IMG/VR virus record: IMGVR_UViG_3300031867_000007
Span: 64,001-128,000 of that record
Source: a virus
Taxonomy: Duplodnaviria; Heunggongvirae; Uroviricota; Caudoviricetes
Direction: 5' to 3' (one strand)
Length of the DNA stretch: 64,000 nucleotides
Program-made: the position numbers and the translations under genes
Notes under the pieces: generated by a model
Database searches by the model: none
What the model was told of the DNA's origin: nothing
What the model saw: only the letters and a program-made list of their open reading frames with translations
Part shown: positions 11,815 through 46,143 of the stretch, in pieces
Position numbering within the stretch: the stretch's first letter is position 1
How the letters are laid out: every line of letters begins with the position of its first letter

Positions 11815-11849
11815 TTTATACCCTCCCTACTTATAATAATTTGATGCAT

Positions 11850-12403
11850 ATTAGCCATCCTTCTGAATGTTTCCCGGCGGCAACCACGTGGAGGTTTGCA
11901 TCATATACTACCGCCATTTGAAGTTGTTTGAGGAGTCATTTCTAAAACCTCACTCAGTCTTCTCCTGAGTTGATAGTCCGATAACGCAGATACTATTTAC
12001 CACGATACTTATACTACTCTAAGCATGGAGCTCTGGTCTACCTTTCCAGAAAGGGAAACTACTCTTTTATTAATCGCTCAAGTTCTCCCATTGCGATAGA
12101 AATTTTTCCCGCGGGTTTGCTAGGTTTTATGTTTTTGTCCTAGCTATAACGAGTTTATGTACACTCCCCGTCAGTTTTTTGATTGAGTTCTTTTATATCC
12201 TGTCGTTCAATCAACCAACAGCGAAGGTTTATCATTGTTCTTAGTACAAACACTAGCCTACAAAAGCTTAAACTAATCCCTATTCAGCCTTGTTTTGGGA
12301 CAAGGTCGAAATCAGTTTTTGAAGCCTTAACCCTTGCGGTGGTTACAAGCGTTGCCGCAATCGCCGCCATCTTATATTTAACGACCTAGATGAATCAGTC
12401 AAG
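11850..12403 (-). ncRNA. large structured ncRNA candidate (ROOL/GOLLD class possible)
   Basis: About 550 nt, GC-elevated, no credible ORF, own TTGATT/TATAAT promoter. Confidence 0.5.
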
Positions 12404-13723: not shown

Positions 13724-14233
13724 TTAGACTTTATAACTATAATCTTTTTCTACTTTATATAATATTGCTTCAGCTTTTGTTTTTTCTCTTGAAGTAAAAC
13801 CAATGCGGGAATCAGTTAAAACTAATTTATCTGAGAAATATTCTTTTATATCAAAACTTTCATCATCTAAAATGACGAAATCTACTGGATGATCTATTTT
13901 ATCTAAATATTGTTTTATTTGTTCACCTCTTTCAAGATATGTATCTTTAATAGCTATATCTTTTATTTGAATATTATATTCTTCAAGGCGTGCAGCCGCA
14001 ACTTCTCTATCTACATCATGCAATCTCCAAGAGCTAGTTAAAACCACATAAGGTTCATCATCTTTTGACCTAATATAATTACATAAATATGCTAATTGTA
14101 TTAGTGAAGATGGATCAAAAGGCACATTATTACAAAAGAAGGGATGCTTCCTATGGAATTTTTTATAGCATAATTTAGTATATTTTTCATTATTTAAAAC
14201 ACCATCTATATCTAAAAATATATATTTTTTCAT
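13724..14233 (-). CDS. HAD-family phosphatase (Swiss-army-knife RNA-repair type)
   Basis: FLDIDGVLN, TSSWR, RGEQI, ILDD. Confidence 0.8.
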   Translation of the reverse strand: MKKYIFLDIDGVLNNEKYTKLCYKKFHRKHPFFCNNVPFDPSSLIQLAYLCNYIRSKDDEPYVVLTSSWRLHDVDREVAAARLEEYNIQIKDIAIKDTYLERGEQIKQYLDKIDHPVDFVILDDESFDIKEYFSDKLVLTDSRIGFTSREKTKAEAILYKVEKDYSYKV

Positions 14234-24202: not shown

Positions 24203-24288
24203 TGGTGGGTAATTAAGGACTCGAACCTCCTAATTTTATGATAGCAAATTTATAGTCTGCCGCGACTCACCACCTTCGCCGATTACCC
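24203..24288 (-). tRNA. tRNA-Tyr, anticodon ATA
   Basis: Cloverleaf with long variable arm; GCAGA CT ATA AA TTTGC; CCA end. Confidence 0.8.
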
Positions 24289-24454: not shown

Positions 24455-25172
24455 TGGAGTCGATACTGAGAATTGAACTCAGAACTCTATGCTTAGACAT
24501 TTTTTCACTCTTCTTCGGTATACTGTTTAATATCTTTTTTCTTACTTGGTAGATTATAACTAATACACCATTTTCTTATAGCACTATCTGAGACTCCAAA
24601 TTTTTTACCAAGAGCTACAAAACTTTCTTGCCTTATCATCTCTTTAAGTTCTTCTCTAATAGGTCTTTCACATCTTTGCTGTAATTTATGAGCACATTTT
24701 ACACAATATGTAGAATGTTTATCTTTTAATATAGTACCGCACATCTTACATAGTTTTGGAAAACTACGTTTTTTCTGTCCTCCTACCATAATATTATAAC
24801 CATTTGGAGTAATACAATTATATCTTTGAATGTATTCTTGTTCTAATTGATCGATTTCTTCAACACTACACTCTTGTAATACTTCTCAAGTAAAATGCTC
24901 CTTACCATATTTTCTAATCGCTTGATGTAAAATAGAATTAAAAGTCCCGCTCTTTTCAGAAAAAGATTTTCAAAAATGTTCTTTTACTCTTTTTTCAATA
25001 TCAATAGATTGTCCAATATAAACTTTGTTATTTATATCATTTTTAATTATATAAATCCCAATCATTATTTTATCCTCCTTATAATATATAAAAAGTAAAA
25101 TAAAATAATTTCAAACTCTTACCACATCTATTTACTTTTTTGCACAGAATTTTACCATTAAACTATACCGAC
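24455..25172 (-). tRNA. split tRNA (anticodon unresolved) interrupted by a GIY-YIG ORF
   Basis: 5' half 25142-25172 and 3' half 24455-24492 pair in acceptor and anticodon stems; U73, CCA. Confidence 0.75.
24493..25065 (-). CDS. GIY-YIG homing endonuclease (TGA=Trp)
   Basis: MIGIYII..VYIGQS..KYG; CxxC pair and C-terminal HTH. Confidence 0.85.
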
Positions 25173-25291: not shown

Positions 25292-25424
25292 TTATTAATA
25301 TTTGAAGGTGGGACGGCGTACCCCACATCTCATTATAGAACTAGGTCTTATAAGCTTTGTTTCAATATTACACTCTGCCTAGCCGCGTTAGCTGCCTTTC
25401 TAACCTCTTCAAATAATTATATTT

Positions 25425-26595: not shown

Positions 26596-27558
26596 TTAAT
26601 CTTTATAAAGTGGATATTTTTTACAAATTTCTTGTACCTGTAATACTAATTCATTTTTTATTAAATTAAATTCTTCATCATTGACCTTAATACATTTACA
26701 TATTAAATATGCTATTTTACGCATATCTTCAATAACCAATCCTCTTGATGTAACTGCAGCGGCACCTAGTCTTAAACCAGATGTTACCATTTTACTTTCA
26801 GTATCAAAAGGAATTGCATTTTTATTAGAAATAATACCTATTTCTTCTAATCTTGACTCTAATTTTTGTCCATTTATTTCAGTTTTTCTTAAATCTAATA
26901 ATAGTAAATGATTATCAGTTCCTTTAGTTAAGATATCACAGCCTAAATGAATTAATTCCGCAGATAATGTTTTTGTATTTTCTACTACTCTTTTCATATA
27001 TTCTTTAAATTCTGGTTTTAAGGCTTCTCCAAAACATACTGCTTTTGCGGCAATAATGTTTTCTAGCGGACCTCCTTGAGTTCCTGGAAAGACAGCGCTA
27101 TTAATTTTTTTAGCTATTTCCACACTATTAGTTAAAATTATTCCTCCTCTAGGTCCTCTTAGTGTTTTATGTGTAGTAGATGTAATAACATCAGCGTAAG
27201 GTACAGGAGATTGATGCAATCCAGCTGCTACCAATCCAGCTATATGAGCCATATCAACCATAAAATAAATATGATTTTTTTCTATATATTCCGGAATATC
27301 GCTATCTAATAAATAATAGTCATTATAAATTGCAGAATCAATTCTTTTTTGGGCTTTATCAATTATCTCTCTTAGTTTTTTAAAGTCAATTTCTCTTGAA
27401 TATGCACTTGCTCCTGCAATAAAAATTTTTGGTTTATTTTCTACAATAAAATCTTCAAGAGCATCATAATCTATTTCATATGTTTCTGAATTAACTTCAT
27501 ATTGAATTGATTTAAAATATTTTCCACTAAAAGTTGGTTTTGCTCCATGTGTTAAATG
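26596..27558 (-). CDS. glyA: serine hydroxymethyltransferase, exon 2
   Basis: [29 protein letters not shown]. Confidence 0.95.
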
Positions 27559-28441
27559 CATTTGTTAATCTTGTGATTTCGCACAAGTTCGGACTATACC
27601 TTCTACTTAAATTGAAATCTTTTCATAATTTCATCTCTGACATATTTATTCAAAGGATACTCTAATTCTGGATTATAAGCAGTAATTCCAATATTTATAT
27701 TAGAAATTGAATTTTTTGCAACTCCATATTCTCTTGCTAATTCTCTTATTGGAACTCCACTCATAATTGCATCTTGAATTTCTTCATAATAACCATATAA
27801 TTTACCTTTTCTATTAGAACCACCATGCTCTTGAATAATTTTAGATAATAAGCTATCACTAATATTAAAATATTCTATTATTTCTTGTCTTGGTAAATTA
27901 GTATTATTATATAAATCCCAAACTTCTTCTCTATATTCAAATTTTTCATCTATATTATTTATTGGATTATAATTTTTTGTTAATTGTTCATTATAAATAA
28001 TATAATCTAAATCTTCATATTTTTTGATAATTTTTTGTTCATAATAATCAATTTGAGATTTCAAACACTCTACTTCAATATTAACTTCTATATTATCAAA
28101 TCCTATTTTATTTATCCAATTATAGATAGGTCTATCTATTTTCTTTTTAACATAACTTTTATGTGCGTACATTCTTTGCTTAATATTTGAAGTTTTTCCA
28201 ATATAAATTTCCTTTAAATTATTTTTATTTTTAAGCGAGTAAATATACATATTTCCTCTCCTTTCTAAAATTTAAGTAGCCCCTTGGTAGTCTCTGAGGG
28301 CACGCCATTACGCTTATCCCTGCTGATTGTCCAATCTTTAATATTTTTACACTTTGGTAATTAAAGCTCTAAGGAGTTTCCAGCATATTCAGGGTTTTTC
28401 TTTTATTGTATCACTACAATAGGGAAGCCAGATTAACACAA
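27559..28441 (-). mobile_element. group I intron in glyA
   Basis: Exon ends in U, intron ends in G; P/Q/R/S-like ATGCTGGAAA, AATCAGCAG, TCAGAGACTAC, AAGGTATAGTCC; splicing restores SGG|HLTHG. Confidence 0.9.
27603..28250 (-). CDS. intron-encoded GIY-YIG endonuclease
   Basis: MYIY..IYIGKT..R..H; HTH repeats. Confidence 0.85.
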   Translation of the reverse strand: MYIYSLKNKNNLKEIYIGKTSNIKQRMYAHKSYVKKKIDRPIYNWINKIGFDNIEVNIEVECLKSQIDYYEQKIIKKYEDLDYIIYNEQLTKNYNPINNIDEKFEYREEVWDLYNNTNLPRQEIIEYFNISDSLLSKIIQEHGGSNRKGKLYGYYEEIQDAIMSGVPIRELAREYGVAKNSISNINIGITAYNPELEYPLNKYVRDEIMKRFQFK

Positions 28442-28813
28442 ACCTCCCGAATTTAAAGACATTCCCATTATTGTATCTCCTGGTTTAGCAAGAGCAAATT
28501 GAACAGCAGTATTCGCAGATGCTCCTGAATGAGGTTGTACATTTGCATATTTACAATCAAATAATCTACAAGCTCTATCAATAGCAAGTTGTTCTGTTTT
28601 ATCTATTATGCGGCAGCCTCCATAATATCTTTTACCTGGATACCCTTCACTATATTTTAAAGTATGATACGATGCCTGTGCTTCTAATACTGATTCACTT
28701 GGTTCATTTTCACTTGCGATTAGCTCAAGACAATTATTTTGTCTATTATATTCTTCCATTATTAAATTATAAACTTCTTGGTCTGTTTCTTTAAGATGTT
28801 TGAATTCTATCAT
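28442..28813 (-). CDS. glyA: serine hydroxymethyltransferase, exon 1
   Basis: [30 protein letters not shown]. Confidence 0.95.
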
Positions 28814-32330: not shown

Positions 32331-32883
32331 TGGCGCCGTACACGCGATTCGAACACGCAAGCCCTTTCGAGCCAACTGCTTTGAAATATGTATTATAATG
32401 CTTTTATTACCTCCTCTATCAAATAATCCTTTGCCCAATGTACATCTTTAACAAATTTCGCATTTTTATTAGGATCTGCTATTCTTAATGTAAATTGAGC
32501 TCTTTCCTTTTCACAAGGAATTAAATAAAATTTGTTATCTCATTCAGTCATATAAAAATCAATTTGATCTGGTGTATATTTCATTGTTTTATTTCCATTT
32601 GATACAGAATGAGTTGATTTACAATTAAAAACAATAGTTTCATTTTCAACATTCCATCTTGATGTTTTTATTTGAATACGATATATTTTATTATTATAAT
32701 CTAGAATTAAATCATATCTTGCATTGTCTAAAACAGGTTTAGATATAATAAAATCATTTTCAATTAAAAACATTTGACATTTTAATTCGGTAATCGCACC
32801 TTTTTTTAAATTTTCATTCATAATATATTTTAGCATTACATATCTTATTTCAAGGCAGCTCCCTCACCACCCGGACATACGGC
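32331..32883 (-). tRNA. tRNA-Ser(TGA) split by an insert of about 468 nt near position 37/38
   Basis: 5' half ends GCTGC CT TGA A; 3' half A GCAGT, long variable arm, G73 CCA. Confidence 0.8.
32393..32836 (-). CDS. PD-(D/E)XK endonuclease (group I intron-associated type; 1 in-frame TGA)
   Basis: KG..TE..P..DN.RYDLI..RIQIKT..Y...IDF. Confidence 0.85.
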
Positions 32884-33390: not shown

Positions 33391-33448
33391 CCAAGTTTCT
33401 TAGTAAGAACACCCTTCGCCACGAGAAGGCGAACTTGGTTCGAAGGAC
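33391..33448 (-). ncRNA. HDV-like (theta) ribozyme in tRNA 3' trailer
   Basis: P1 GTCCTTC/GAAGGGT, P2 CCAAGTT/AACTTGG, P3 GCC/GGC, L3 TTCTCGT, J4/2 CTAA. Confidence 0.8.
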
Positions 33449-33508
33449 GCAGGGGCTGTAGGATTCGAACCCACACCCACGGTTTTGGAGACCGTTACCC
33501 TGGTTTTG

Positions 33509-34112
33509 CTTACCACTATAGTTTTCACTACCTACTGGACACTATAGTTTGTGGTCTGGAGTACATCTTCACCATATTATTTCTAACTTAGGTGTGCGAT
33601 TATCTACTCTCTACGGGCTAAAATATTATTTTATTCCCTCGGTATTGCCAGTCAAGGTTTCACCGATATCATCGCATCCACTCAAACTGTTTCCAATCTG
33701 AGGCTCCAATTGAGTAAAGTTATTTTTATAAGGTTCTAAAGCTTTTATTCCTATTGAACTACTATATTTCATAATAAAGTCTATTGGCACTATATATAAA
33801 TCTTCAGTCTCAATATCTGTTCCTATAAAATAATCTATTTCAGACTTATTATATAAATGAATTTTATATTGTCCTTGATTATGATTTATTTTTCGTACAG
33901 GAAGAACCTTCCTTCCACTATCCTTTTGAATAGTTTTAATTTGCATTTTTATTAAATAATTGTTTTTAATTGCAATACAATCTACTTTAGTATTTTCTAA
34001 TACAGGAATATATAATTCTCATTCCCTTTTTAGTAATTCCTTTTCTAGTAAATTATATCCTAATCTACCTTTAGTTATTGTGTCCACAACTTTACTCCTT
34101 TTTATTTAGCTT
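33509..34112 (-). mobile_element. group I intron in tRNA anticodon
   Basis: ATCGGTGAAA, AATACCGAG, CGTAGAGAGTAG, GAAGATGTACTCC core; terminal G; IGS TTGGAG (33704-33709) pairs across the junction. Confidence 0.85.
33626..34087 (-). CDS. intron-encoded PD-(D/E)XK endonuclease (1 in-frame TGA)
   Basis: AAGGAG RBS, GTG start; KG..KVDCI..MQIKT..Y...IDYF. Confidence 0.8.
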
Positions 34113-34213
34113 AAGACCAGTGTGCTACCATTACACTAAGCCCCTATATTAAAATTCTTTCTTTTTATATATACATTTTATTATATTTTTTTATAAAAAT
34201 CAATAAAAATTAT

Positions 34214-34288
34214 TGGCGACGTTAGGAAGTACTGATCCCCCGATCTCCGCAGTGATAGTGCGGAGATCTACCGCTGAACTATAACGCC
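34214..34288 (-). tRNA. tRNA-Asp-like, anticodon ATC, atypical T loop
   Basis: CCGCA CT ATC AC TGCGG; G73 CCA. Confidence 0.65.
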
Positions 34289-35676: not shown

Positions 35677-35753
35677 TGGTGGAGATGAGAGAAGTCGAAT
35701 CCCCGATCTTCTGGTTGCAAGCCAGACGCTTTAACCAACTAAGCTACATCCCC
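35677..35753 (-). tRNA. tRNA-Ala(TGC)
   Basis: Cloverleaf with G3-U70. Confidence 0.92.
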
Positions 35754-35760
35754 ATATATA

Positions 35761-35886
35761 CAAGACACAAATATAATACGCGCTCTACCACTGAGCTACT
35801 TCCTCATTTGGTGAGGAAGATAGGATTCGAACCTATGACCTCGGGTACCTGTAAACCTAATATAAATATTATGCTGTATGTGTCTT
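35761..35886 (-). ncRNA. YrlA-like Y RNA (circularly permuted tRNA domain)
   Basis: T arm, acceptor stem closed by ACCAAAT, then D arm, inside an AGACACATACAGCA/TGTGTCTTG stem. Confidence 0.75.
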
Positions 35887-41255: not shown

Positions 41256-41452
41256 AACTATCTACCTCCTTTATTTATATTATTATTTTATAATATTTTT
41301 TATTAAAAATCAATATGCTTTTTGATCTAAAATAATACATTCTTATATTGATTTTTAATAAAAAATATTATAAAATAATAATATAAATATTTAAACGCGC
41401 GCACGCGTGCGATATTTAATAATGAAGAAAATTGATGAAAGGAATATTTATC

Positions 41453-41728
41453 ATGGAAAAAATGAATTTTGCAGAATGATTATATGAACAAGAGAAAAAT
41501 AATGATAATATATTGGCGCCAAGTTTAAATTCACAATTAGCATTATCATTTTTAATAGATTATTTATTAGATGATAATTGGTATATAGATTATTCAGCTA
41601 GCGAAGGACAAAATAATGCTCATGCTGTTAACGAAATATTGACAAAATATTCAAAAAGATATAAAAAAGAAATAAAGAAAATAAGAAAGGATATACAAAA
41701 TGGAAAATTATTTACAAGAGGAATATAA
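41453..41728 (+). CDS. hypothetical protein (1 in-frame TGA)
   Basis: AAGGA RBS before ATG 41453, in frame with the track ORF. Confidence 0.6.
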
Positions 41729-43680: not shown

Positions 43681-44934
43681 ATGATAAATAAAGAAACAGG
43701 TTTGCGTGAATTATGCTATGTAGTTAATATAGATGCAATAGAACCAATAATAGGTTCAGATAATTGCGAGGCTGCAGTTGTAGGTGGATGGAAAATAATG
43801 GTTAGAAAAAACACTTTTAAAGTTGGAGATAAAGCGGTATATTTTGAGATTGATTCAAAATTACCTGAAACGAAAGAATATGAGTTTTTAGCAAAAAAAC
43901 ATTATAAAGTAAAAACTCAAAAATATACATTCGGTGGAAAAGGTAATTTTATTTCACAGGGTTTATTAATGGCTTTTGATGATTGGGTAGATGAAGAAGG
44001 TAAAATTCCATCTTGGTTAGCTGCTTTAAATTTACAAAGAGCCAATGATATAGATATTACAGGTACTTTTTTAACAAACACACTTGGAGTAAAATACTCA
44101 GTTATAGAAGATAACAAAAGAAAAGCATCTGTTGATAAATATAAAAAAATGGCACAAAGACATTGGAAATTATTTAAACATAATAAAATTATTCAATGGT
44201 TATATGGGAAAAATTGGGGTAAAAAATTATTATTTTTCTTTTTAGGTAATAAAGCAGATATAAAAGCTTCGTTCTGGCCTGATTGGGTAATAAAAACTGA
44301 TGAAGAAAGAGTACAAAATTTACCTCAACTATTTCCTCCAGATGATACTGAATGGTTTGTAACCGAGAAAATAGATGGAACATCAACGACTTTTACAATG
44401 AAAAGAGCGAAAAGAAACAAATATGATTTTTACGTATGTTCTAGAAATGTATGTTTTGATAAACCTGAAAAAGAACAAAAACTATTTTATGAAAATAATG
44501 TCTATACAGAAATGGCAATAAAATATAACGCAGAAGAAGTTTTAAAAAATATATTAGATATTCATAATGATATTGAGTTTGTTACTATACAAGGAGAGAC
44601 ATATGGAAAAGCAATTCAAAAAAGAGATTATGGTATGGATACTATAGATTTTAATGCATTTAACTTAATTTTTGGTTATAAAAATGGAGAAACAAAAAGA
44701 TTTAATCCAAGAGAAATGAAAGAAATATTAACAAATACATACAATATACCCTGCGTTCCAATTTTAGATGAACATTTTAAATTACCAAATTCAATAGATG
44801 AAATGATAACTTATGCAGATGGAAATTCAAAAATAGATGGAGAGTATAGAGAAGGTGTTGTATTAAGAACCTCAGATGGAGTAAATTCATTTAAAGCAGT
44901 TTCAAATGAATATTTATTAAAAAAAGGAGAATAA
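43681..44934 (+). CDS. ATP-dependent RNA ligase (Rnl2/DRB0094-like, N-terminal OB fold)
   Basis: YFEIDS, SQGL, KTDEER, EKIDGTS, QGE.YG, REGVV, FKAVS. Confidence 0.88.
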   Translation: MINKETGLRELCYVVNIDAIEPIIGSDNCEAAVVGGWKIMVRKNTFKVGDKAVYFEIDSKLPETKEYEFLAKKHYKVKTQKYTFGGKGNFISQGLLMAFDDWVDEEGKIPSWLAALNLQRANDIDITGTFLTNTLGVKYSVIEDNKRKASVDKYKKMAQRHWKLFKHNKIIQWLYGKNWGKKLLFFFLGNKADIKASFWPDWVIKTDEERVQNLPQLFPPDDTEWFVTEKIDGTSTTFTMKRAKRNKYDFYVCSRNVCFDKPEKEQKLFYENNVYTEMAIKYNAEEVLKNILDIHNDIEFVTIQGETYGKAIQKRDYGMDTIDFNAFNLIFGYKNGETKRFNPREMKEILTNTYNIPCVPILDEHFKLPNSIDEMITYADGNSKIDGEYREGVVLRTSDGVNSFKAVSNEYLLKKGE

Positions 44935-45619: not shown

Positions 45620-46143
45620 ATGGCTAAATTATTTTTAATGATGCGGGATTCCACGGTTCAGGAAAAACAACTTGGATTAAAAGACAGTTAAAAGAAAATG
45701 ATATTTATATATCTAGAGATGAAATAAGATTTAGTTTATTACAAAATGATGAAGATTACTTTAAATATGAAAATGAAGTATTTAAAATTTTTTGTAATAA
45801 GATAAATGATGCTTTAACAAATCCAAAAATTAATAGAGTATTTGCAGATGCAACTCATATAAATACTAATTCAAGAACAAAAGTATTAAATAGACTTTAC
45901 ATTCAGCCAGATGAAATAAATGTCATTTGGCTTCAAACTCCATTAATGGTATGCTTAGAAAGAAATGCTACTCGAGAGGGTCGCGCAGAAGTACCAATGG
46001 AAGTCATTAAAAATATGTATTATAGTTTAGAAGAGCCATCTAATAAAGAAAATATTGATTATTTATATATAATTAATAATAGATACAAAACAATAAAAAA
46101 AATATGGCTAAAAGAATATGACTTTGATGGATTTGTATTTTAA
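45620..46143 (+). CDS. P-loop polynucleotide kinase-like protein (2 C+GGN shifts)
   Basis: [G]IP[G]SGKTTW, SRDEIR, DATH..R, CLERN..R; extra C at 45644 and 45654. Confidence 0.88.

Follow-up and report, generated by a model that had tools for sequence, protein, structure and literature searches.

A phage tRNA-Ser(UGA) gene split by an endonuclease-encoding insert whose ends are predicted to pair with the anticodon: a candidate protein-spliced intron

The window analysed here is a 64,000-nt stretch of a TGA-recoded gut phage genome (G000; a record of 143.8 kb, 97% complete by the tool's estimate), in which coding cover is 61% under translation table 11 and 81% under table 4. On its minus strand lies a tRNA-Ser(UGA) gene in two pieces: the 5' half, comprising tRNA positions 1-36, at 32850..32883 with the anticodon TGA at 32852-32850, and the 3' half, running from A37 through CCA, at 32331..32381. 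Between them, in the 36/37 register, sits an insert of 468 nt (32382..32849, minus strand) with 23% G+C, whose 3'-terminal TCA is the complement of the anticodon. An earlier interpretation made from the letters alone (the sequence-only reading) had described both halves as intact, and we find both on the minus strand; their in silico ligation yields a normal tRNA-Ser(TGA) of 85 nt, complete with long variable arm, G73 and CCA. The split gene was missed by both ARAGORN and Rfam. G000 yielded no intact Ser(UGA) gene, and a pattern search of genomes G001, G002 and G007 (the last 28% complete) likewise recovered none. The insert length of about 468 nt given previously proved exact on comparison of contigs from four runs, probably all DNA, at this locus: those of runs X2 and X3 are insert-free alleles that skip exactly 468 bases, with an ambiguity of 3 letters, and a contig of run X1, possibly the sample from which the record derives, crosses the insert with zero differences. 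The latter contig, together with 34 homologous split loci, rules out an assembly artefact. The predicted fold of the precursor has an energy of -123.2 kcal/mol (z -3.98), and none of 100 shuffled sequences was equally stable.

The open reading frame within the insert (32393..32836, minus strand) encodes 147 aa from its first ATG and 142 aa from a conserved second ATG at 32821, which is the start used in most homologs. Counted from the first ATG the insert is laid out as 13 + 444 + 11 nt, in agreement with the flanks of about 12 nt that had been assigned to the ORF; counted from the conserved ATG, however, the leader is 28 nt. The 444-nt length of the ORF likewise stands, but the frame is open only with TGA read as Trp, the code used by the phage: codon 99 is an in-frame TGA, so that the product has 98 aa under table 11 and 147 aa only with TGA as W, the residue that close homologs have at this position. 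The product matches the Pfam profile PF11645 at 79 bits against a cut-off of 26, and its only PDB match is 2OST (I-Ssp6803I; E 3.8e-10), with E17 aligning with the catalytic E11; its structure model has a pLDDT of 91.9. Across a set of 32 loci described below, the catalytic D, Q and K are present in all 32 and the E in 29, a TAG codon occupying its place in the remaining 3. The ORF product thus has the PF11645 domain with the E, D and Q-x-K residues of the I-Ssp6803I family, and the occurrence of insert-plus and insert-minus alleles at one site is that of a homing endonuclease; it is predicted to be a PD-(D/E)XK homing endonuclease related to I-Ssp6803I. As a side observation, among loci L003, L005, L037, L002 and L101 (the last in genome G002) a TAG falls at the catalytic Glu17 in four and at another Glu in L005, and in G002 TAG stands opposite E in 3/4 aligned places, albeit in small numbers. 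Either TAG might be read as Glu in some phages, or TAG read as Gln might approximate a natural equivalent of the inactive E11Q form, the numbers being small for both.

A second PF11645 gene, 25% identical to the insert ORF, is found nearby at 33626-34087, within the 604-nt group-I-like intron, ending in G, of a tRNA gene with two tandem anticodon arms (UCA and CCA; 33449-34145, minus strand). Insert-free alleles of this gene also appear in the run contigs. The two-armed tRNA appears to be the only UGA reader of the phage, so the TGA-containing genes, including the insert ORF, would depend on its splicing. Directly after it there is a weak match to HDV-like ribozymes (33391-33448, minus strand), and a strong one lies at 11842-11915 (minus strand); theta ribozymes beside phage tRNAs have been published. 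A tRNA-like gene at 24455-25172 (minus strand), for which ARAGORN predicts the anticodon CTA and an intron of 644 nt near 32/33, contains a GIY-YIG ORF that has its own upstream ribosome site and a stop abutting the 3' half; considered as an insertion of the same kind, it showed no comparable end pairing and is of a different kind. The serine hydroxymethyltransferase gene (26596-28813, minus strand) is split by a GIY-YIG ORF, probably in an intron, and the genes for gyrase A, DNA ligase, DNA polymerase III alpha and nrdD are also in pieces. Other features of the window include, in the stretch separating tRNA-Gln from tRNA-Ala, a T-arm with an acceptor-like end that lacks an obvious D arm (35750-35840, minus strand), odd anticodon calls for Tyr(ATA) at 24203 and Asp(ATC) at 34214, a Tad8-like Thoeris inhibitor (41432-41725, plus strand), a skipping-rope RNA (25300-25414, minus strand) and a phage tmRNA (35188-35544, minus strand).

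Searches for homologous loci with single proteins recovered none, whereas a 43-sequence alignment (43 of 121 proteins) used as the query recovered 48. An exact junction pattern search returned one match, L001, which is due to chance. By reading of the flanks, 34 of the 48 consist of a split tRNA gene of which both halves are present (contig ends clip three of these), and in one more only the 3' end is visible. Seven, from three lineages, have a free-standing ORF beside an intact tRNA-Ser(UGA), the intact downstream copy having been read in L002, L006, L012, L017 and L021; in L044 the stem is kept and the tRNA exons are lost; L036, L038 and L046 are deleted or truncated; and two have a free-standing ORF in other contexts. 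Removal of four duplicate contigs and addition of the window and of the cultured Enterococcus phage EFP01 gave a set of 32 loci with 31 distinct junctions. In this set the proteins are 27-69% identical to the product of the window's ORF, the inserts are 452-484 nt long and the trailer after the stop is 10-14 nt. The junctions involve seven kinds of anticodon, namely TGA in 23, GAT in three, and TAA, TAT, GCA, GTC and GTT. EFP01 (L087; KY549443, about 105240-105780) has a split tRNA-Asn(GUU) gene of the same architecture that is unannotated in its record, and its two records are the only carriers among 38 matching Enterococcus phage records; compared with EFDG1 and CCS1, its insert lies at GTT|AA between identical exons. 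A pattern with gaps of 445-475 nt gave 16 matches of which three were real, all on contigs found before, and no other cargo came to light.

These comparisons bear on the exact insertion site, which in the window alone is ambiguous between 35/36 and 38/39. The register 36/37 is the only one that fits all 31 junctions, and it is also the one given by the EFP01 and EFDG1 alleles; 37/38, near which the sequence-only reading had placed the insertion, fits 21/31, and that placement is corrected accordingly. Excision at 36/37 leaves a standard 7-nt anticodon loop in 31/31 distinct junctions, and ARAGORN recognizes 25/32 of the joined sequences as tRNAs with the same anticodon, three of the seven misses being cut by contig ends. 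In the predicted fold of the precursor TTGAAATA pairs with TATTTCAA and, after an internal loop, TGTAATGCT pairs with AGCATTATA. The 5' arm of the proximal helix is made up of U33, the anticodon and insert bases 1-4 (32846..32853) and its 3' arm of the last seven insert bases, including the anti-anticodon, and A37 (32381..32388); the distal helix has its 5' arm within the leader (32832..32840) and its 3' arm (32394..32402) overlapping the last codons and the stop, all on the minus strand. The earlier suggestion that complementary insert ends extend the anticodon stem is borne out as far as the terminal stem is concerned, but the TATGTA:TACATA pairing on which it drew forms only in a fold with the insert ends joined.

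In the fixed register, U33:A37, the pairs of positions 34, 35 and 36 with the three terminal bases of the insert, and those of insert bases 1-3 are each seen in 31/31 junctions, whereas insert bases 5-8 pair in only 12-16/31. Given that the junction registers were selected partly on pairing, we used pairing-blind and swapped-arm controls. When selection was made on the anticodon stem, blind to this pairing, runs of at least 7 bp were still found in 24/28 junction pairs; own arms pair at 6.8/7 positions as against 3.9/7 when swapped; and duplexes of the insert-only arms average -10.5 kcal/mol for own arms and -5.0 for swapped ones. Covariation of the terminal stem in homologs, which had been put forward as a check on the original observation, is thus found across seven anticodons, and the anticodon and the insert ends are predicted to form one continuous helix. 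Position 32:38, on the other hand, pairs in just 1/31 split genes and is paired in 3/3 lineages in which the split tRNA was lost.

The insert belongs to none of the group I, group II and bulge-helix-bulge (BHB) classes, because the canonical BHB helix is found in 0/31 junctions, the final base is never G and the ORFs share no structure. The absence of a ribozyme core had been noted from the outset, and this observation stands. Where a group I intron would end in G, the last insert base is A in 26/32 loci and C in 6/32; no conserved P3-P7 core was found, the consensus fold of 23 aligned ORFs being pairless (0.0 kcal/mol); and the non-coding sequence of the insert, counted from the conserved start, amounts to 39 nt. 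The Rfam intron models did not match the insert, a weak blank given that Rfam also missed the neighboring likely group I intron. A group I or II core concealed within the ORF would be in keeping with the residence of the relative I-Ssp6803I in a group I intron, and with the insert body folding somewhat better than shuffles in 3/5 loci tested (z -2.3 to -3.3). However, fixed synonymous codons (p<0.001) occur in just 5 of 121 ORF columns, specifically two tail Glu, one stem-arm Asn and two isolated Ser, and in view of these, the terminal bases, the pairless consensus and the Rfam result we reject a hidden core as very improbable. The insert starts with AATAAG and ends in TTCA, in place of the GUGYG start, AY end and domain V of group II introns, and has no Rfam group II match. 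The sequence-only reading had also linked the insert to the protein-spliced 37/38 introns of archaea and eukaryotes. This connection, and with it a BHB intron at 37/38, is rejected: allele comparison gives 36/37, the helix is continuous from 33:37 inward in place of the canonical arrangement (32-35 paired, two 3-nt bulges), and the EndA family (PF01974) is absent from G000 (97% complete), having been detected in four archaeal controls. Nor is the insert of the short, ORF-free type with an internal tRNA-like element known from Lak phages, as the inserts are 452-484 nt and ORF-filled.

A further feature common to these loci concerns the translation of the ORF. In its last codons lies a Shine-Dalgarno-like GAGGAGGT (32409..32416, minus strand) with no ORF downstream. 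Such a tail motif, defined as a Shine-Dalgarno match of <= -7 kcal/mol before the stop, is found in 28/32 split loci as against 20/124 ORFs of G000, whereas an upstream motif (<= -5 kcal/mol before the start) is found in 2/32 split loci as against 83/124 G000 ORFs. The two loci with an upstream motif, L026 and L049, have no tail motif and have kept the helix, implying that the helix does more than deliver the tail motif. In the last 45 nt of the ORFs, 43/59 Glu codons are GAG, compared with 29/269 in the ORF body (the loci are related and the significance is therefore overstated), and the amino acids encoded over the tail motif vary. The free-standing copies that keep the stem (L002, L012 and L044) keep the tail motif, and L006 has lost both and has an upstream site. 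It is likely from these patterns that the stem presents the tail motif to the ORF's own ATG, the loop being closed through the tRNA body or in a ligated circle. In T4 mRNAs, hairpins shorten the distance between motif and start. Measured across the stem in the 17 loci where the duplex fold yielded both gaps, the distance from motif to start is 12-22 nt (12-18 nt in 16 of them), and this long gap is the weak point of delivery by the stem.

The tail motif figures, the GAG bias and the free-standing copies all speak for the main rival to splicing, namely that the insert is never spliced: the tRNA ends would be processed normally and the tRNA body would serve as a protective scaffold for a closed-loop mRNA, a helix-closed pseudo-circle that lends the tail motif to its own start, with the decoding function lost and covered by the host copy. 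We regard this as a real possibility, though one rated somewhat short of an even chance. It is further favored by the existence of restored intact tRNA copies, by the lack of congruence between exons and enzyme, by the lack of a ligase common to the carriers and by the absence of an ORF-less mini-intron: among Ser(UGA) genes, the range scanned being gaps of 10-71 nt, 0/16 pattern matches with gaps of 10-40 nt and 0/29 with gaps of 41-71 nt were real. This absence among 45 matches fits a need for the encoded protein, and would equally fit no splicing. Against the unspliced scaffold stand the long motif-to-start spacing, L026 and L049 with a helix and no tail motif, and the fact that broken exons are in the minority; it also needs a separate reason, such as the homology required in homing, for the open C32·A38 and the cognate anticodon.

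The history of the exons has a direct bearing on this question. Across 21 Ser loci, enzyme and exon identities show no correlation (Mantel r 0.02, p 0.39); L030 and L033, for instance, are 92% identical in the protein and 60% in the exons. This suggests that the element moves among unrelated alleles and that intact exons are possibly recent captures. Recent homing can explain intact exons, given the lack of a Mantel correlation and the identity of the EFP01 exons to intact EFDG1; hence homing alone can keep exons intact, and may itself need a short match at positions 32-38. In L002, L012 and L044 the stem and tail motif persist without split tRNA halves, and in L002, L006 and L012 an intact Ser(UGA) gene lies directly beside the ORF, as if function had been restored. 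The intact downstream copies in L006 and L012 carry C, not U, at position 33 and are perhaps endonuclease-resistant alleles. L007 belongs to a genome in which no ligase was detected; its serine-type body bears a UAA anticodon, to which the anti-anticodon is complementary, and this tRNA would misread if spliced. Close to L007, and likewise close to L041, there is an intact gene whose anticodon is that of the split one. In seven other loci (L105, L108, L109, L112, L117, L119 and L126) an additional 3' half, belonging to a different Ser tRNA, comes directly after an intact tRNA-Ser(UGA) and may be the scar of a past insertion. Overall, the insert represents a genuine element that recurs, is likely mobile and has a covarying RNA structure, and it fits none of the intron classes against which it was compared.

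Several observations speak for splicing: 32:38 remains unpaired in split genes but pairs in each of the three derived lineages, L026 and L049 keep the helix although they have no tail motif, and most loci are unbroken (34/48 split with both halves). Also in its favor are the standard loop left by excision at 36/37, the pairing kept across seven anticodons, the lack of an intact Ser(UGA) gene in the genomes searched for one and the presence of an RNA ligase gene in most carriers. Against it are the free helix without a tRNA, the restored intact copies, the uncorrelated exons and the differing class of ligase. We tentatively propose, at nearly an even chance, that the insert is a protein-spliced intron removed by a 3-nt staggered cut and subsequent ligation; as judged from the sequences at hand, splicing comes close to even and the unspliced scaffold stays only slightly behind it. 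The first step, which is well supported, would take place on DNA, with the enzyme likely cutting the anticodon arm of insert-free tRNA genes in co-infecting phages, whereupon the insert would be copied in at 36/37. In the transcript, for which covariation is seen and folding is predicted, the anticodon stem would be followed by the C32·A38 mismatch, a helix of 7-11 bp spanning U33:A37 through the anticodon:anti-anticodon pairs, an internal loop and the second helix. At translation, where the sequence signal is strong, this helix would set the tail Shine-Dalgarno motif near the ORF's own start codon, with either the precursor or an excised circle as template. Finally, proteins would cut the RNA at two points, 3' of base 36 and 3' of the final insert base, and the tRNA would be resealed by an RNA ligase. 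With the final insert base paired to N34, each product would be left with a recessed 5' end next to a 3' overhang of 3 nt, and exon ligation and intron circularization would therefore share the same geometry.

The leading candidate for the cutter is the encoded nuclease, since its DNA target is reproduced, in its left half, by the RNA helix, and since the 45 pattern matches included no ORF-less version. The overhang left by I-Ssp6803I is 3 nt, the anticodon itself; if this holds, the RNA helix would mimic half of its DNA target with the same stagger. This nuclease family is not known to cut duplex RNA. The cutter may instead be another RNase, because cyclic-phosphate ends would suit all three ligase systems found among the carriers better than those made by a PD-(D/E)XK enzyme; RtcB is not known to seal the 5'-phosphate/3'-OH ends that such an enzyme leaves. 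Sealing would fall to the RNA repair system available from the phage or its host. In G000 a candidate sealer, whose link to the insert is conjectural, is an ATP-dependent RNA ligase like DRB0094 and Naegleria Rnl (Rnl5 type; 43681..44934, plus strand); 3' of it is an AAA_33 kinase-like match (45646..46038, plus strand) with two frame breaks near its start in the record, and an RNA-repair type HAD phosphatase is encoded at 13727-14233. The phage ligase and kinase that had been invoked are thus both represented in G000, the kinase-like gene with the qualification of its frame breaks. No RtcB, RNase III or EndA was found in G000, and no match to T4 Rnl1, although the latter is a weak blank given that this search was silent in every control too. 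Rnl5-like ligases are present in G001, G002, G007 and contig C51 of G005, a T4 Rnl1-like ligase in G004 and RtcB in EFP01, the assignment for G006 being equivocal, and no RNA ligase was found in G003 (96% complete).

Alternatively, a host double-strand RNase of the RNase III or Mini-III type might free the endonuclease mRNA and leave the tRNA halves unjoined. The closure of the ORF by a long helix with an internal loop would suit such an enzyme, as would the retention of the stem by free-standing copies in tRNA operons. The 2-nt 3' overhangs left by RNase III (PMC6582327), however, cannot yield the exact 36/37 product, nor would such cutting explain why positions 33, 34 and 36 and the first insert base are strictly Watson-Crick paired (31/31 each), making this an improbable account. 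In bacterial rRNAs, intervening sequences are excised by RNase III and left unreligated. These are likewise stem-closed inserts with a possible ORF and no ribozyme; here, by comparison, the insert is in a tRNA anticodon loop, where halves left unjoined could not serve in decoding, and a stagger of 3 nt rather than 2 would be required.

Among known systems, I-Ssp6803I (I-SspI; PDB 2OST, PF11645) of the Synechocystis tRNA-fMet intron at site 33/34 belongs to the same nuclease family, but its ORF lies within a self-splicing group I intron, whereas the present insert lacks a ribozyme, occupies site 36/37 and has ends predicted to pair with the anticodon. The I-SspI target is a pseudo-palindrome centered on the anticodon, and its cut leaves 3' overhangs (PMC2175346). 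If the insert is spliced, it would share with archaeal BHB introns, including rRNA introns with homing endonucleases, a common plan of an ORF in a stem loop, two staggered cuts and ligation; BHB introns often hold homing endonuclease genes (PMC6125680). The differences are the lack of junction bulges (canonical central helix in 0/31), the site 36/37 rather than 37/38, the lack of EndA in the genome and the carrier, which is a bacterial virus. Closer in position are the tRNA introns of Lak megaphages (Devoto et al. 2019, PMC6784885), which lie just after the anticodon, have no group I or II match and are termed enigmatic in that paper; the insert shares with them the interruption of a phage tRNA gene just after the anticodon and the lack of such a match. 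They differ in being, in its Table S6, about 80-115 nt long with a tRNA-like element at the end and no ORF, and the four types listed there do not, as we read them, end in the anticodon's complement. Free-standing homing genes of phage tRNA clusters (the T4 SegB type; the PD-(D/E)XK genes of My1, KoPa-4, Morian and HSTV-4) place the same protein family beside tRNAs, and L002, L006, L009 and L012 are of this free-standing kind. Such genes leave the tRNA gene whole, and the tail motif occurs in only 1/7 cultured examples. In HSTV-4, an archaeal virus (L089, 602-1180), a gene of this nuclease family is flanked by an intact tRNA-Asn on one side and a duplicated 3' half on the other.

In the literature on phage tRNA introns, homing endonucleases, ligases and circular introns we did not find this architecture described, although subscription journals were mostly uncovered and a description may exist. 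As it stands, the insert would be a variant among endonuclease-carrying tRNA insertions, and it would become a new intron class if the junction RNA is found. Such a class, which we consider possible at somewhat less than an even chance, would comprise tRNA introns that are inserted at 36/37, lack a ribozyme and base-pair with the anticodon through their three terminal bases, removed by a 3-nt staggered cut and sealed by an RNA repair ligase, with the circle setting the tail ribosome-binding site before the start; the cutter would perhaps be the same PD-(D/E)XK protein that spreads the insert as DNA. Standard tRNA finders miss such split genes. As EFP01 is cultured and insert-free relatives such as EFDG1 are known, splicing is directly testable. 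Protein-only tRNA splicing has been assigned to archaea and eukaryotes, bacterial and phage tRNA introns being ribozymes, the Lak introns apart. If the insert is spliced, it would represent a separate phage route with a new recognition rule, the anticodon:anti-anticodon pairing, and possibly a single enzyme acting both as homing DNase and as splicing RNase. If it is unspliced, it would be a natural tRNA-scaffolded mRNA with its ribosome-binding site behind the start codon, an arrangement that we likewise did not find described.
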